Source: Candidatus Cloacimonadales bacterium
Lineage (GTDB): Bacteria > Cloacimonadota > Cloacimonadia > Cloacimonadales > JAFGVF01
NCBI GenBank assembly: GCA_963678315.1
Contig: OY782781.1
Coordinates: 896,001 to 960,000, forward strand
DNA length: 64,000 bases
Reading direction: 5' to 3'
In this document: in pieces, positions 48,839 to 59,006 of the stretch
How positions within the stretch are numbered: position 1 is the stretch's first letter
Layout: the number at the start of each line of letters is the position of its first letter
Notes under the pieces: model-generated
The model's database searches: none
Told to the model about the DNA's origin: nothing
What the model saw: the letters and a program-made list of their open reading frames with translations, nothing else
Translations under genes and position numbers: made by a program

Positions 48839-51800
48839 ATGTTAAAGAAACTTCTATTAGTAATGATGCTTTGTGCATTAATGGCAACTATGTGGGCATT
48901 TGAACCACACTTTATGAAAGATCCAGATATTTCTCCGGATGGAAGTCAAGTGTGTTTTGTGTATAATGGTGATTTATGGACTGTTCCATTTGAAGGCGGT
49001 CAAGCGACAAGATTAACTGATACTTACTATAACGAATATGAACCAAAATATTCACCTGATGGTAAGAAGATAGTCTTTCTCGGAAATGGAGAAGGAGTTT
49101 CTCAGATATACTCAATTGATGTTCAAGGTGGTGTTCCAGAGAAAATCTCAACTTCTGGATATGGATTATATGACTGGTTTCCAGATGGAAAATCACTTCT
49201 TGGTGGTAAATATAATCCACGCTTAGGATTAAGTTTTTCTGAAATCCCACTAAATGAAAACAGACCTAAAGATATTACTTTAAAAGGTGATTCTTTTGCT
49301 ACTGTGTCAAATGATGGTAAAAGAATTGTTTATTGTGACAGAGGAGACCCATTTAGAGAAGCTTATAGAGGTTCTACTAATGGAGAACTTTGGGAATACA
49401 ATATTAAGAAGGACAAATATACAAAGCTTACTAATAGTGATGTAACTGAACGTTATCCTGTGTTCTCTAAACAACACGATAACCGATTATATTATGCTAA
49501 ATCAGATGGAGAAATTCTTCAGCTGTTTGTAACTGAAAACTATGATTTTACTAATGAACAAAAGTTAACTAGCTTTAAGACTTGGTCAGTTCGTGACCTT
49601 TCTATTGCTAGAGAAAATGATAGATTAGTATTTGAGAAGTTTGATGAAATCTGGGCTTATGATGGTCAAGAAGCTAAGAAAATTAACATCGATATTAACG
49701 AACTTATTGTTCCTGTAACAGTTGAAAGAGAAAATGTTAAAAATGGCTTCGAAGATATTGAGATAACTTCTAATGATAAAGTGCTTGTTTTTACTTATAT
49801 GTATGACTTATTCATGATGCCAAAAGATGGTGGTCCTGTAAAACAAATAACTTTTGACCATGTTCCTATCTCAAAGATTCAAACTTTAGAAGATGACGAT
49901 ACGATTGTAATTTTAAGAAGAGACAGAGGTTATGGCCAATTATATAAGATTAAGATTAGTGAGCCTCAAGAATTAATCAAGATTGCTTGGTCTGAAGATA
50001 GAGATATTAATGATTTCGAAAAAACTGGTGCAGGTAACTTCTTAATTCATTATACAGTTAATAACAAAGAAATTAAAGCTGCATTGACTGATAAAACATT
50101 CTCGAATTTCGATAGACTTACCTTCGCTGATAAAAGAATCTATTCTTATGTAGAAAGAATTGATTCTGACTATGTAGCAATTACAGAGATTGACTTTGTG
50201 AAAAGCATTTATTATTTAAGTTTATACAATTCTAGATCTGGTCAAATATTCCCAATCTATAACTCATATAAGGGTATCTATGGATTAGTTTGGGGTAAAG
50301 ATGATAGAACTTTATTCTTCACTGAATCTGGCAATGTTAAGAGAGTTGATTTACATGCAGTTGATAAATTAGCAAAATACCAAGATCCATGGGATAAAAT
50401 CCTTAAAGAAGAGGACAAACTTTCAGAAGAAGACTCAGAAGAAACTGAAGTTGTAGATTACCCTGAGTTAAATATCGACTTTACTGAAATAGACAAAAGA
50501 ATCTATACTGTGTTTGAGAAACCTGGTTTCTGTAGAGTACTTTCAGTTATAAATGATACTACTATGGTTATTGAAAAGAATGATTCAGGAACTGTTTTCT
50601 ATAAAACTAACTACTATGGAGAACATGAAGAAGAGATAACTAAAATAGAAGAAAAAACTTATTACACATATAATGATAAGAGTAAGAATTATTACTATAA
50701 TGATGAAAATATGATTCGCTTTGTTAACCTTGAAAGCAGTGCGACAGGTAAGATAGAGAATAGCTTCTTCTATGAATACGATAAATCTAAAATAAGAAGA
50801 CAGCTTTTTAAAGAGGTATGGGGAAGGTTTGGAACAGAGTTTTATGACCCTCAAATGCATGGTGTAGACTGGAATAAGCTTTATGATAAGTATTTACCTT
50901 ATGTAGACTACTGCAAAAGTAACAATGATATCGCTTCTATTGTTGAAGAAATGATCGGGGAAGTAAATGCTTCACATACAGGATTCTATCCAAAGTCTGA
51001 TAAGTATATTTACTCTTACATAAAAGCAACTATTGGAGCAAGCCTAGATTATTCTGAAAGATTATCAAAAGGTATTAAATTCAGAACAGTTTATGATAAT
51101 ACTTCTCTAAAGGATGTTTATAATGTTCAAGCAGGAGATTTACTTCTTGCGGTTGATGGAGTTAAAATAGATAAAGAAACTGATATCCCTATGTTGTTTG
51201 CTAATAAAGTATTTAAGAATATTAAATTAGAGATTAAACGTCAAGGTGAAGATAAACAAGAAATCTGGGTTAAAGGAATTACTGGCTATGAACTATATGA
51301 CCTTGAATATAGAGATTGGGTGAATAAGAGAAGCGAAATAGTTAAACGTAACTCTGATGATAGAATCGCTTACCTTCATATAAAAGGGATGAACCAAACT
51401 GCCTTGAAGAAATTCATGGAAGACTTCTGGAATGATAACCTCAATAAAGAAGGATTTATTATTGATGTGCGTGGTAACGGTGGTGGTAATATATCTGATG
51501 AACTTATTGATATTATTGAAAGAGATTACCGTTCTGTAACTTCTAGTAGATATTATGGCGACATGAAGATTAAGCGTGATAGAAAGACTTTTGACAAGCC
51601 TATTGTTGTGCTTATTGATGAAGATTCTTTCTCAGATGCTGAAGTATTCCCTCATTTAATGAAGCAAGAAGAACTCGCTACCCTTATTGGTATGCCAACT
51701 AGTGGTTCAGTTATCGGTACTTATAATATAGACCTTTTTGAAGGTTCTAGCATGAGAATACCATCTAGTGGTTGGTGGACTCTTGACGGTACTAACATGG

Positions 51801-51910
51801 AAGGAAATGGGGCTCAACCAGACATTAAAGTTGAGATGACTCCTGAAGATTATATCAATGATAATGATGTTCAATTAGAAACAGCTATTGATTTCTTATT
51901 GAATAGATAA
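48839..51910 (+). CDS. Tricorn-like S41 family peptidase (PD40 propellers, PDZ)
   Basis: ISPDG repeats, GEVNASHTG, IIDVRGNGGG, SFSDAE catalytic Ser region, EGNGAQPDI. Confidence 0.92.
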   Translation: MLKKLLLVMMLCALMATMWAFEPHFMKDPDISPDGSQVCFVYNGDLWTVPFEGGQATRLTDTYYNEYEPKYSPDGKKIVFLGNGEGVSQIYSIDVQGGVPEKISTSGYGLYDWFPDGKSLLGGKYNPRLGLSFSEIPLNENRPKDITLKGDSFATVSNDGKRIVYCDRGDPFREAYRGSTNGELWEYNIKKDKYTKLTNSDVTERYPVFSKQHDNRLYYAKSDGEILQLFVTENYDFTNEQKLTSFKTWSVRDLSIARENDRLVFEKFDEIWAYDGQEAKKINIDINELIVPVTVERENVKNGFEDIEITSNDKVLVFTYMYDLFMMPKDGGPVKQITFDHVPISKIQTLEDDDTIVILRRDRGYGQLYKIKISEPQELIKIAWSEDRDINDFEKTGAGNFLIHYTVNNKEIKAALTDKTFSNFDRLTFADKRIYSYVERIDSDYVAITEIDFVKSIYYLSLYNSRSGQIFPIYNSYKGIYGLVWGKDDRTLFFTESGNVKRVDLHAVDKLAKYQDPWDKILKEEDKLSEEDSEETEVVDYPELNIDFTEIDKRIYTVFEKPGFCRVLSVINDTTMVIEKNDSGTVFYKTNYYGEHEEEITKIEEKTYYTYNDKSKNYYYNDENMIRFVNLESSATGKIENSFFYEYDKSKIRRQLFKEVWGRFGTEFYDPQMHGVDWNKLYDKYLPYVDYCKSNNDIASIVEEMIGEVNASHTGFYPKSDKYIYSYIKATIGASLDYSERLSKGIKFRTVYDNTSLKDVYNVQAGDLLLAVDGVKIDKETDIPMLFANKVFKNIKLEIKRQGEDKQEIWVKGITGYELYDLEYRDWVNKRSEIVKRNSDDRIAYLHIKGMNQTALKKFMEDFWNDNLNKEGFIIDVRGNGGGNISDELIDIIERDYRSVTSSRYYGDMKIKRDRKTFDKPIVVLIDEDSFSDAEVFPHLMKQEELATLIGMPTSGSVIGTYNIDLFEGSSMRIPSSGWWTLDGTNMEGNGAQPDIKVEMTPEDYINDNDVQLETAIDFLLNR

Positions 51911-51932
51911 AACAGATAAGTTAAGAAAAGTC

Positions 51933-51960
51933 TTGACAGTTAGTTTTCTTACTATACTGT
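51933..51960 (+). promoter_or_regulatory. Sigma70-type promoter of the hflX leader
   Basis: TTGACA-16nt-TACTGT. Confidence 0.6.
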
Positions 51961-51996
51961 TGGTTTAATAATAAAATAAACAAAAGGAGATGCGGA

Positions 51997-52026
51997 ATGA
52001 TTAATGTATTATATCTTAATAATTAA
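51997..52026 (+). CDS. Putative hflX leader peptide MINVLYLNN
   Basis: AAGGAG SD 7 nt upstream of ATG; 9 codons; stop codon abuts the first attenuator segment. Confidence 0.65.
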   Translation: MINVLYLNN

Positions 52027-52028
52027 TT

Positions 52029-52157
52029 CTGCACTGACCCTTTAAATATAAACATTTAAGAGATGGGATCAGTGTGTAGTTAACATTGCTGATCCTATCG
52101 TTGCGTCTATTTTCCCGGATTGCAGTCCTTATAGGATTAGCAATCCGGTTCTTTTTT
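52029..52157 (+). promoter_or_regulatory. Transcription attenuator (alternative helices plus intrinsic terminator) upstream of hflX
   Basis: Mutually exclusive pairings 52030-40/52065-76, 52062-74/52087-99 and 52085-98/52131-44; terminator CCGGATTGC/GCAATCCGG plus TTCTTTTTT. Confidence 0.8.
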
Positions 52158-52188
52158 AGGGGAAAAATAAGAATAATAAGGAGTTCAA

Positions 52189-53517
52189 ATGAATTTAGTA
52201 GGAAATGAAAGCAGTGATAGTATTATTCTTGACCCAAACAAAGTAGTTTTGGTAGGTATCTGTCTTCCTGACGAAAATATTGGTGATAAGGAAAAATCAC
52301 TTGATGAACTAGAGCTTCTTGCCAAGACAGCAGGGCTCAAAAGTGTTGATAAAATGATACAAAAGAGAAGCAGAATAAATGGTGCAACTTATGTTGGAAG
52401 TGGCTTCTTAGAAGAGATTAACTATGTTGCTAAGATAAATGGAGCTAGCCAAGTTATCTTCGATAATGAGCTTTCTCCAACGCAAGGAAAGAATGTCTCT
52501 GACCTGTTAGAAGTTGATGTTATAGATAGAACAGAAGTTATATTAAATATATTCCATCATCATGCTCAAACTAATGAAGCTCGTTTGCAGGTTCAGTTAG
52601 CAGAACTGCAATATCAACTTCCAAGACTTAAGAAACTTTGGTCTCACTTCGAAGGCGAAAGAGTTGCTGCTGGGGGAGCTAAAGGTTCTGGAACTGCTTC
52701 TAGAGGTATGGGTGAAACTCAGCTTGAAGTAGATAAAAGACTCATTAGGGAAGAGATATATAAGGTGCAGAGAAAGTTAAGCAATATTCTCAAACAGAAA
52801 GAGACTCAAAGTAAGCGCAGAGCAGGTATGAAGCGTATCTGTCTTGTCGGCTACACTAATGCCGGCAAGTCAACCCTCTTTAATCAGATTACAGACGCTG
52901 GAGTTTTGGCTGAGGATAAGCTATTTGCTACTCTTGGTAATACTGTCAGAATGGTGAAGCTAAATAGAGGAAGAGAGATGGTAATATCAGATACAGTGGG
53001 ATTTATATCTCAATTACCTCACCATTTAGTTGCATCATTTAGAGCAACTTTGAAAGAGGTTACAGAAGCTGATTTATTGCTTCATGTTATCGATGTTTCA
53101 GATGAAAGGTATGATTTTTATATAGATGAAGTGAATAAGGTTCTTGAATCAATCGGAGCTTCAGATGTTAATGTTCAGCTTGTTTTCAACAAGATAGACA
53201 GGCTTGATAAACAGCAGCTATTATTCTTGGAATCACGATTCCCAGGAGCTGTTTTTATCTCAGCTAAGAAGAATATTAATATTGATCTTTTGAAAGATAA
53301 AGTTGATAGAAGTCTTCATTCTCACGCTACATACAGGTTATTTATTCCTTTTACTGAACAAAAATCTGCTTCTAAATTAGAGAAACTAGGTGAAGTTGTT
53401 AATAAGGATTACCAGAATCAAGGAACAGAGTTTGTGGCAATTCTCAATGATGAGGATGTTAGATTCTTCCAAAGGTTCTTACGATTCACAATTGATGACT
53501 TTTATCCAAATATATAG
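52189..53517 (+). CDS. hflX: Ribosome-splitting GTPase HflX (possibly HflXr-like)
   Basis: ELSPTQ, DRTEVILNIF, LQVQLAEL, GYTNAGKSTL, DTVGF, NKID, SAK. Confidence 0.96.
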   Translation: MNLVGNESSDSIILDPNKVVLVGICLPDENIGDKEKSLDELELLAKTAGLKSVDKMIQKRSRINGATYVGSGFLEEINYVAKINGASQVIFDNELSPTQGKNVSDLLEVDVIDRTEVILNIFHHHAQTNEARLQVQLAELQYQLPRLKKLWSHFEGERVAAGGAKGSGTASRGMGETQLEVDKRLIREEIYKVQRKLSNILKQKETQSKRRAGMKRICLVGYTNAGKSTLFNQITDAGVLAEDKLFATLGNTVRMVKLNRGREMVISDTVGFISQLPHHLVASFRATLKEVTEADLLLHVIDVSDERYDFYIDEVNKVLESIGASDVNVQLVFNKIDRLDKQQLLFLESRFPGAVFISAKKNINIDLLKDKVDRSLHSHATYRLFIPFTEQKSASKLEKLGEVVNKDYQNQGTEFVAILNDEDVRFFQRFLRFTIDDFYPNI

Positions 53518-53548: not shown

Positions 53549-53588
53549 AACTTCTTATGACTAATGTTTCTTAGTTATAAGAAGTTTT
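53549..53588. terminator. Hairpin terminator between convergent hflX and hypothetical gene
   Basis: AACTTCTTATGACTAA/TTAGTTATAAGAAGTT inverted repeat followed by T-rich tract. Confidence 0.7.
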
Positions 53589-58605: not shown

Positions 58606-59006
58606 AGCATCTTGCTGGCTTCACTTAGAACATAGTGATATTTGAATTTGTAGGGGTGTATGGCATACGCCCATTTTGCGTAAGCATGAACAAGTTCAAC
58701 CTTTGGTGGATGCTTACACTCCAGAGTAAAATTAGTCGGAACGCCAGCATCTTGCTGGCTTCACTTAGAACATAGTGATATTTGAATTTGTAGGGGTGTA
58801 TGGCATACGCCCATTTTGCGTAAGCATGAACAAGTTCAACCTTTGGTGGATGCTTACACTCCAGAGTAAAATTAGTCGGAACGCCAGCAGCTTGCTGGCT
58901 TCACTTAGAAAATAGTGATATTTGAATTTGTAGGGGCGTATGGCATACGCCCATTTTACATAAGCATGAACAAGTTCAACCTTTGGTGGATGCTTATATT
59001 CCAGAG
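58606..59006. repeat. 140-nt tandem repeat (~2.9 copies) built of REP-like hairpins
   Basis: Units start at 58606, 58746, 58886; contain GTAGGGGYGTATGGCATACGCCC, GCCAGCATCTTGCTGGC and TAAGCAT..ATGCTTA stems. Confidence 0.95.

Follow-up and report, generated by a model that had tools for sequence, protein, structure and literature searches.

We examined the region upstream of an hflX gene in a 64,000-nt stretch (hereafter, the window) of Candidatus Cloacimonadales contig OY782781.1. Between a promoter-like hexamer and the gene, which encodes a ribosome-splitting GTPase, lie a short upstream open reading frame (uORF) with its own Shine-Dalgarno (SD) sequence, a chain of mutually complementary segments (A, B, and C), a further conserved element (D), and a predicted intrinsic terminator. 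This element is, in our judgment, quite probably a ribosome-dependent (leader-peptide) transcription attenuator controlling one of two hflX paralogs. All coordinates are those of the window; the leader elements are all on the + strand and were read directly from the letters (Table 1). Computation covered the sequence elements with their significance and conservation, the paralogy of the gene, and the distribution of an arrest motif; these results are reported first.

Anatomy and conservation of the hflX leader

The gene matches the HflX family model TIGR03156 (GTP_HflX, 404.6-405.2 bits against a cut-off of 216.75), in line with its first-pass annotation as hflX, and the same genome carries a second hflX (TIGR03156, 403.8 bits) that is 40% identical to the window copy. 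The first-pass annotation had also placed TTGACA, the SD AAGGAG, and a nine-codon uORF (MINVLYLNN) upstream of the gene; all three are there, and every coordinate that it listed is right to within one base (its segment 1, our segment A, was begun at 52030 and ended at 52040, and we find it at 52029-52040, able to pair with segment 2, our segment B). The alternative pairing of its segments 2 and 3 (B and C), the 14-bp complement of segment 3 at 52131-52144 with one G-U, and the terminator with its T-run were likewise recovered in the sequence, the T-run ending 31 nt before the hflX ATG (earlier estimated at about 30). Two structures had escaped it, a helix around the uORF (P1) and a pairing of element D with the 5′ terminator arm.

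Of the promoter proposed earlier, the hexamer TTGACA stands; the candidate -10 element TACTGT with its 16-nt spacer is not conserved, and the hexamer shared with the relatives is TAnACT (Table 1). TTGACA is also found at the head of most of the analogous leaders from other families whose upstream regions we inspected. Elsewhere in the window, TTGACA sites have spacers of 16-17 nt, against the 14 nt to TAnACT in the conserved leader promoter.

Of 14 loci found in species genomes by a protein-guided scan, six belong to Candidatus Cloacimonadales/Cloacimonadota metagenome-assembled genomes of one sister genus (six species, 66-70% protein identity), and these six leaders were aligned with that of the window to give a set of seven. 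The leader is kept upstream of the orthologous hflX in all six sister-genus species; conservation of the uORF and helices in relatives had been named beforehand as a test of the attenuator proposal, and both were found in 6/6. Mean column identity is 87%, with conserved blocks at TTGACA, AAGGAGATGC(A/G)GAATGATT, CTGCACTGA, TGGGATCAGTG, TGCTGATCCTAT, TTGCGT, and the terminator. The uORF stop codon lies 1-2 nt before CTGCACTGA in the aligned leaders, and the core of segment B (UGGGAUCAGUG) is invariant (7/7). The pairs of the readthrough (ON) structure described below are retained in 87% of cells, vs. 19-50% when the partners are slid. The A:B helix of the window is better than that of its relatives: a G-U replaces their G-G mismatch, and a shifted register still retains three C-G pairs.

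A covariance model (R1) built from the seven leaders and run with strict filters matched 7 of 151 Cloacimonadota genomes, namely the window genome and all six sister-genus species; under the same filters it matched neither of the two genomes of the family's third genus, and nothing in 14 other families. Run unfiltered, R1 matched none of 80 metagenome loci at E <= 0.01, these being among at least 120 stretches that fit GGATCAGTG-N(8,22)-GCTGATCC, a word pattern that is overly loose and partly palindromic. At locus L012 (about 1248-1500; same genome as G045 / L032), an insert of about 250 nt with inverted-repeat-like sequence separates the leader terminator from the hflX SD, and the leader itself is intact.

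The sister-genus uORFs are 15 codons long (MINLSIKATVKLRSN, MIILNTIAILRNRSN, MINLIITVIVKNRNN, MINLSITAIVKVRSN, MINLSIKNNVKLRSN, and MINLSLTATVKVRSN) and share with the window uORF the start ATGATT and the end AAT TAA. The window uORF is 18 nt shorter; the difference is in frame, and the M-I start and the N-N-stop end are retained. All sister-genus uORFs have K or R at codon 11 and R at codon 13, around a variable codon 12 (L, N, or V), and end in S/N-N-stop; their middle is variable. Judged by this pattern, the uORF appears to behave as a coding frame and would be translated. The motif R/K-x-R/K (+x+) is present in 6/6 sister-genus uORFs and in 10/17 uORFs of other genera. In macrolide/ketolide arrest at +X+, as set out in PMC8298421, Leu (x) occupies the P site and Arg (R/K) the A site. 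Because the motif is absent from MINVLYLNN, we did not file the window leader as an Arg-Leu-Arg (RLR)-type peptide; its peptide appears to have lost the motif of its relatives.

Alternative pairings and ribosome position

Folding of 51965-52190 (226 nt) by RNAfold gave -59.7 kcal/mol against -40.4 +/- 3.6 kcal/mol for 200 dinucleotide shuffles (z = -5.43, none as good), and the predicted terminator alone gave -22.1 kcal/mol (z = -6.13). We tested the chain of pairings arm by arm: the upstream part was dinucleotide-shuffled 1000 times, and the best duplex that each arm forms with the real upstream leader was compared with those formed with the shuffles. Shuffles equal or better were few for the 3′ terminator arm (-19.7 kcal/mol, 2/1000), segment C (-20.1 kcal/mol, 0/1000), segment B (-15.8 kcal/mol, 6/1000), and the stop codon plus segment A (-14.4 kcal/mol, 5/1000). 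A and B form a hairpin of -15.2 kcal/mol (duplex: -15.8 kcal/mol), 90% of whose cells are paired across the seven leaders; the anti-antiterminator helix B:C has -20.3 kcal/mol (duplex: -21.6 kcal/mol), and the 14-bp antiterminator duplex of C with the 3′ arm has -19.2 kcal/mol. The mutual exclusivity of the four structural elements in the first-pass scheme holds in both the folds and the duplex shuffles.

The minimum-energy and consensus folds both have three hairpins: P1, B:C, and the terminator. P1 sets the uORF SD, start, and first codons against the end of the uORF (last codon and stop codon) and segment A (AAGG with CCUU, AG with CU, and UGCGGAAU with AUUCUGCA), and RNAfold gives -12.4 kcal/mol for 51984-52045. 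When C is free, 52083-52150 folds as C:3′ arm plus D:5′ arm (GGA.UUGCAG.C) at about -22.9 to -23.4 kcal/mol, and the antiterminator of the window is then nearly isoenergetic with the terminator (-22.1 kcal/mol). The antiterminator helix of the six relatives continues from C via AUUAUUG as far as the terminator loop and the last part of the 5′ arm. As modelled, the antiterminator is a long hairpin in which the inner halves of the two terminator arms are engaged, and once it has formed, the outer CCGG stem of the terminator can be closed only as a pseudoknot. The UUGCGUC of D has a second complement in GAUGC(A/G)G, within the 5′ strand of P1 where the uORF starts (duplex -10.7 kcal/mol). This second pairing shows up in folds with a ribosome late in the uORF and might block re-initiation.

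We then placed ribosomes on co-transcriptional snapshots in which the last 8 nt of the 3′ arm were hidden in the polymerase and the footprint reached from -12 to +14 around the P-site codon. The terminated (OFF) state was predicted for 6/7 leaders with no ribosome and for 7/7 (B:C plus terminator) with the A site on the stop codon; the ON state (A:B plus C:3′ arm) was predicted for 7/7 with the P site on AUG or codon 3, and for 4/6 sister-genus leaders with the P site on the x of +x+. For the window leader, ON was obtained at codons 1-4 or 1-5, and irregularly at 6-8, with 6 or 8 nt hidden and footprints to +12 to +16. The stall logic of the first-pass annotation (early stall ON, arrival at the stop codon OFF) is therefore reproduced in 7/7 leaders at either position when 6-8 nt are hidden, but not when 0 or 10 nt are. 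Four sequencing runs compared with 51700-52600, two from wastewater metagenomes with a small share (0.07-0.08) and two RNA runs selected by species label, yielded no matching reads or contigs, a result that counts neither for nor against the model.

From these pairings we infer a model in which translation of the uORF, termination in the T-run, choice of fold by ribosome position, and an antibiotic signal would act together. In the OFF default, P1 would hold the stop codon and segment A against the SD, start codon, and first codons of the uORF, while B would pair with C, the terminator would form, and transcription would end in the T-run (52149-52157). An untranslated leader would terminate because P1 sequesters A; without P1, a free A would give readthrough. 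A ribosome that runs to the stop codon would cover A, and the outcome would be OFF too. A ribosome held on the first uORF codons would shield the 5′ strand of P1, so that A would be freed and would pair with B as B emerges, leaving C free; C and D (GUUGCGUC) would then take up the terminator's 3′ arm together with some of its 5′ arm, with readthrough into hflX. In the relatives, the stall site would be the R/K-x-R/K macrolide-type motif three codons before the stop. By analogy with Listeria hflXr, the natural stalling agents are likely ribosome-targeting antibiotics.

Table 1. Elements of the hflX leader and adjoining features, in window coordinates
Feature	Coordinates	Strand	Remarks
-35-like hexamer TTGACA	51933-51938	+	invariant in 7/7 aligned leaders
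-10 candidate TATACT	51953-51958	+	14-nt spacer; conserved as TAnACT in the leader alignment
-10 candidate TACTGT	51955-51960	+	16-nt spacer; not conserved, relatives have AACTAT
uORF SD AAGGAG	51984-51989	+	7 nt before ATG; invariant in 7/7 leaders; also outer 5′ strand of P1, paired in the consensus fold with CU and CCUU at 52034-52042
uORF, 9 codons plus TAA, MINVLYLNN	51997-52026	+	ATG ATT AAT GTA TTA TAT CTT AAT AAT TAA
Helix P1, 3′ strand (AUUCUGCA, CU, CCUU)	52026-52042	+	overlaps segment A; RNAfold and RNAalifold consensus
Segment A (earlier segment 1), CTGCACTGACCC / CUGCACUGACCC	52029-52040	+	partner of B; anti-anti-antiterminator when free
Segment B (earlier segment 2), GAUGGGAUCAGUGUGU / GATGGGATCAGTGTGT	52062-52077	+	partner of either A or C
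Segment 2 of the first-pass annotation, GGGATCAGTGTG	52065-52076	+	read directly
Segment C (earlier segment 3), ATTGCTGATCCTAT / AUUGCUGAUCCUAU	52085-52098	+	partner of B or of the terminator 3′ arm
Element D, GUUGCGUC / GTTGCGTC	52100-52107	+	UUGCGU invariant in 7/7 leaders; putative role
Predicted intrinsic terminator, 5′ arm CCGGAUUGCAGUCCU	52115-52129	+	15 bp, one bulged A, 3-nt loop
14-bp partner of segment C, ATAGGATTAGCAAT	52131-52144	+	one G-U
Predicted terminator, 3′ arm AGGAUUAGCAAUCCGG	52133-52148	+	common to the antiterminator
T-run TTCTTTTTT, predicted premature-termination site	52149-52157	+	conserved in 7/7 leaders
hflX SD AAGGAG	52178-52183	+	AATAATAAGGAG kept in relatives
hflX "type A" paralog, 442 amino acids	52189-53517	+	ATG 31 nt after the T-run
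Terminator-like hairpin 3′ of hflX	53549-53586	+	consensus scan: 16-bp stem, then TTATTTATTT

HflX paralogs and leaders across the order

HflX matches were found in 59 of 61 genomes of the order, with 39 loci at 348 bits or more (class A, to which the window copy belongs) and 48 loci at 306 bits or less (class B). The hflX match in G025 has an in-frame TGA inside. We reconstructed a quick IQ-TREE phylogeny (LG+G4) from BLAST-chosen open reading frames (ORFs): 38 of class A, 25 of class B, and four outgroup loci out of the protein-guided scan, of which three are from Gammaproteobacteria and one is from Acidimicrobiia. Classes A and B each fall on one side of a branch (Shimodaira-Hasegawa-like approximate likelihood ratio test: 99, 99, and 97), in a tree for which the program flags long branches and odd outgroup composition. 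Clade-B genes always follow an overlapping conserved ORF of 95 amino acids (in the window's own genome and at 11/11 other loci), with no space for a leader. This ORF (MKIKFRDVSQG..., e.g., L002 2582-2869 (-), L189-L199) matched no Pfam family at E <= 0.001; its product may be a small partner of the housekeeping HflX.

For clade A, 39 upstream regions were inspected and 35 were evaluable, the exclusions being two contig ends and two unlocated gene starts. A promoter-like TTGACA, an SD, and a uORF of 5-15 codons precede 24 of these 35 genes, and 11 have none. By manual tally, leaders occur at 22/25 clade-A loci where the genome also has a B copy and at 2/10 where A is the sole hflX, counts that are descriptive and carry no test, as the genomes are kin. 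On the clade-A tree, leader presence needs at least four changes, and +x+ among leaders also at least four.

The +x+ motif is encoded in 16 of the 24 short-uORF leaders, [KR]LR in 12, and RLR in 8. Peptides beyond the window's family include MIRTERLRK (twice), MMITIRLRNN, MMTVMIRLRNI, MKINRLRF, MKKYIRLRK, MKNTRLRLY, MINKLRLRW, MKILKLRF, and MMIYKLRIN. A hairpin and T-run follow the uORF in 14/24 leaders by script, and in four more by eye (L012, L058, L181, and L184). At L041 and L042 (genus g6, family f3), the hflX SD GGAGUUU has a complement, AAACUCC, inside the uORFs MININSRF and MMIYKLRIN, and there is no terminator; going by this complementarity, these leaders look like translational attenuation of the erm/cat type.

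Three leaders of genus g2, in the window's family (L053, L056, and L186), have the uORFs MFINTIY, MFNINTI, and MFIYFL, which have no R/K-x-R/K and are followed by (G)CCCCAA; no terminator was detected after these g2 uORFs. In family f5 (L043, L048, and L057), clade-A hflX is leaderless and stands directly after an ATP-binding cassette (ABC)-transporter-like gene with Walker motifs, and the spacer before hflX in L057 is a run of GATGGAC(G/A) repeats. The f5 arrangement would be an alternative wiring of clade-A hflX, possibly to an exporter operon.

When R1 was run unfiltered on 22 loci to look for remote homology across families, its best matches at the correct place and strand were in L044 (E = 5e-4), L049 (3e-3), L059 (0.07), and L038 (0.76); those in L058 and L053 were at wrong positions. 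We do not claim homology across the leader families: true leaders read on the reverse strand reach 26-31 bits, equal to the scores of L044 and L049, so that homology is not established.

We hold tentatively, and at somewhat less than even chances, a joint reading of these distributions, in which clade-A HflX of Cloacimonadales would have old, order-wide arrest-peptide leaders, mostly R/K-x-R/K, recruited independently of Firmicutes as a convergent resistance strategy; some of the leaders would be transcriptional and some translational, and the window would have swapped +x+ for a nine-codon peptide and kept the switch. Because the RNA is unrelated and RLR/+x+ uORFs precede the same gene clade in seven families, the data suggest more than one origin for the coupling of a ribosome-splitting GTPase to a stall-sensing leader. 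If the joint reading is true, HflX-based drug-inducible ribosome rescue would be a widespread convergent resistance strategy that reaches uncultured anaerobic-digester bacteria, and the peptide swap in the window would mean either that the inducer specificity is new or that the stall sensor works independently of drugs. The leaders mark a likely inducible macrolide/lincosamide response in abundant uncultured bacteria of digesters and wastewater, where such drugs occur.

Known systems, rival readings, and neighboring features

In Listeria, hflXr (lmo0762) is under rli80, for which Duval et al. (2018; PMC6310831) describe a 14-amino-acid RLR ORF, an anti-anti-terminator, an anti-terminator, and a terminator. 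According to the same paper, start-codon and structure mutants of rli80 behaved as expected, lincomycin induces the switch, the second copy (lmo1296) is not involved in resistance, and hflX duplications are independent in several phyla. The first-pass annotation had described Listeria hflXr as induced by lincosamides and macrolides through uORF-based attenuation, in agreement with this source, and had known of no such switch in the present lineage; a full-text literature search on Cloacimonadota and hflX also found none.

The window leader resembles rli80-hflXr in its short ORF, anti-anti-terminator, anti-terminator, and intrinsic terminator, in the (here predicted) prevention of the terminator by a stalled ribosome, in regulating a second HflX paralog in a genome whose other copy has the better-conserved neighborhood, and, among its relatives, in the R/K-x-R motif including RLR. 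It differs in lineage (Cloacimonadota as against Firmicutes) and in an RNA with no detectable sequence relation, cmscan of 51000-53000 with permissive filters having found no Rfam family (best E = 0.64, 16.1 bits vs. gathering scores of 40-60). Furthermore, the window uORF has nine codons and no RLR, and lies upstream of A, enclosed by the extra helix P1, whereas the rli80 ORF encompasses the anti-anti-terminator; rli80 was tested by experiment, and the workings of the window leader are predicted from sequence. The window HflX scores 246 bits against the solved structure of Listeria HflXr (8a57), 262 against that of E. coli (5ady), and 275 against a mycobacterial one (8vkw), and the clade-B copy gives the same picture. 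Recruitment was probably independent of the Listeria system, because the window HflX is not specifically nearer HflXr than the E. coli or mycobacterial HflX.

A second parallel is uORFC-6-1 (Breaker laboratory, 2021; PMC8632094), which is described with 51 representatives, mainly in Bacillales, before hflX, and with covariation support. It shares with the Cloacimonadales leaders a conserved Arg-Leu-Arg candidate uORF, RNA structure after the start codon, a position mainly upstream of hflX, and the proposal of a stalled ribosome, and differs in its covariation, none being found in the seven close Cloacimonadales leaders, which have no Rfam match. Leaders of erm genes (ErmDL; PMC8298421) are similar in that R/K-x-R/K lies near the end of a short ORF, as in relatives of the window leader, and in that the stall remodels downstream RNA. 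They mostly act by translational attenuation, in which the SD of the resistance gene is unmasked, whereas the main output here would be an intrinsic terminator, and they regulate a methyltransferase, not a ribosome-splitting GTPase.

In the classical attenuators of the trp, his, and leu operons, the position of a ribosome on the leader ORF selects between exclusive hairpins that end in a terminator; such leader-peptide attenuators are credited to Yanofsky (1981), cited in PMC6310831. A ribosome at the stop codon favors termination in those systems, as it is predicted to do here. The window leader differs from them in having no tandem regulatory codons, a regulated gene that is not biosynthetic, one extra pairing layer, and an antiterminator that takes the 3′ arm of the terminator. 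The mechanism is already known, but the literature searched has neither this lineage nor this RNA family nor a distribution across the order. These leaders bring no new principle, and their value is in how widely they reach across lineages and in their range of natural variants: from a 15-codon K/R-x-R peptide to a nine-codon motif-free one, and from terminator to SD-masking outputs, they form a natural series in which the part of an arrest-peptide attenuator that determines drug specificity could be sought.

Several results weigh against a leader-peptide attenuator of this kind. A simple consensus scan called neither the leader promoter nor the leader terminator; the promoter was missed because no hexamer at 16-18 nt meets the scan rule, and the terminator because its stem is bulged. 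Neither -10 candidate passes that scan, and the -10 element is ambiguous. The predicted behavior is sensitive to parameters: ON is never predicted for the window leader with 10 nt hidden, the set of ON codons moves with the assumed footprint, and one of the seven leaders is already ON in the snapshot with no ribosome. For the full leader at equilibrium, B:C plus terminator wins under every footprint and ON is never the minimum-energy state; therefore, the switch can only be kinetic. Capture of the 3′ arm by the antiterminator is unusual and kinetically worse than capture of the 5′ arm, for which pairing of D to the 5′ arm before the 3′ arm exists may, in the model, compensate.

The comparative evidence has weak points of the same bearing. 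The covariation once proposed as a check is not detectable in the seven near-invariant leaders: 210-253 of 500 shuffles reach the observed measures for the ON structure, and the RNAalifold consensus of the OFF state has one compensatory pair among 51. Covariation is uninformative here because the paired segments are nearly invariant. R1 reaches 7/151 genomes of the phylum and no more, and its 14.5-30 bits on the leaders of other families are to be set beside the 26-31 bits of the reverse-strand controls. The window peptide MINVLYLNN has neither R/K-x-R/K nor another nameable arrest motif, and clade A is not specifically nearer Listeria HflXr by structure scores.

The missing motif bears on what the signal is. 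The same RNA switch could answer to general translation stress (a shortage of charged tRNA for the early Ile, Asn, Val, or Leu codons, heat, or damaged ribosomes), so that HflX would be induced at any ribosome stall as feedback for a rescue factor. This is unlikely in our estimation, although the window uORF has no drug-arrest motif while every RNA element is intact, the g2 leaders and some others are motif-free as well, and the modelled ON positions are codons 1-4 or 1-5; ribosomes that have stalled or been damaged by heat are, moreover, described as being rescued by HflX (PMC8632094, citing Dey 2018). A signal of that kind sits poorly with the +x+ macrolide/ketolide signature (PMC8298421) in 16/24 related leaders, with the lack of a run of one regulatory codon as in classical amino-acid attenuators, and with the two Asn codons at the uORF end, where a stall is predicted to be OFF.

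It is distinctly improbable that the window copy is a relic, left by an 18-nt deletion of the arrest motif, whose terminator is fixed and leaky and gives low basal hflX. A decaying leader should gather disruptive changes, yet all RNA segments are still complementary, with A:B improved, and the SD, start, and stop position are kept across a deletion that is in frame. What suggests a relic is that the K/R-x-R of 6/6 sister-genus leaders is missing in the window and that, whichever footprint is imposed, the equilibrium fold is the terminator state; as to the former, drugs that stall ribosomes at the start codon require no peptide motif, and lincomycin is reported to induce the Listeria switch (PMC6310831). 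We give very little credence to a ribosome-independent riboswitch or protein-binding leader in which the uORF is incidental. Such a leader would fit segments conserved in sequence and not by covariation, and an invariant UUGCGUC whose partner is not firmly assigned, but the best Rfam match (E = 0.64) is far below gathering, the alternative pairings account for every conserved segment, the SD, frame, and stop position of the uORF are kept across the change in length, and non-homologous leaders of the same gene clade share only a short uORF and the motif.

The window hflX is probably monocistronic, because a terminator-like hairpin follows the gene (Table 1). Its upstream neighbor (48839-51910, +) ends 23 nt before the leader TTGACA and encodes a 1023-amino-acid protein of tricorn-like architecture, in which an N-terminal TolB-like beta-propeller is combined with an S41 C-terminal-processing-peptidase domain. 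Farther downstream, the terminator scan listed three near-identical 19-nt hairpins (58654-58672, 58794-58812, and 58934-58952, +) at 140-nt spacing, each reading GGG(T/C)GTATGGCATACGCCC and followed by ATTTT; the trio at 58654-58952 is a repeated element.

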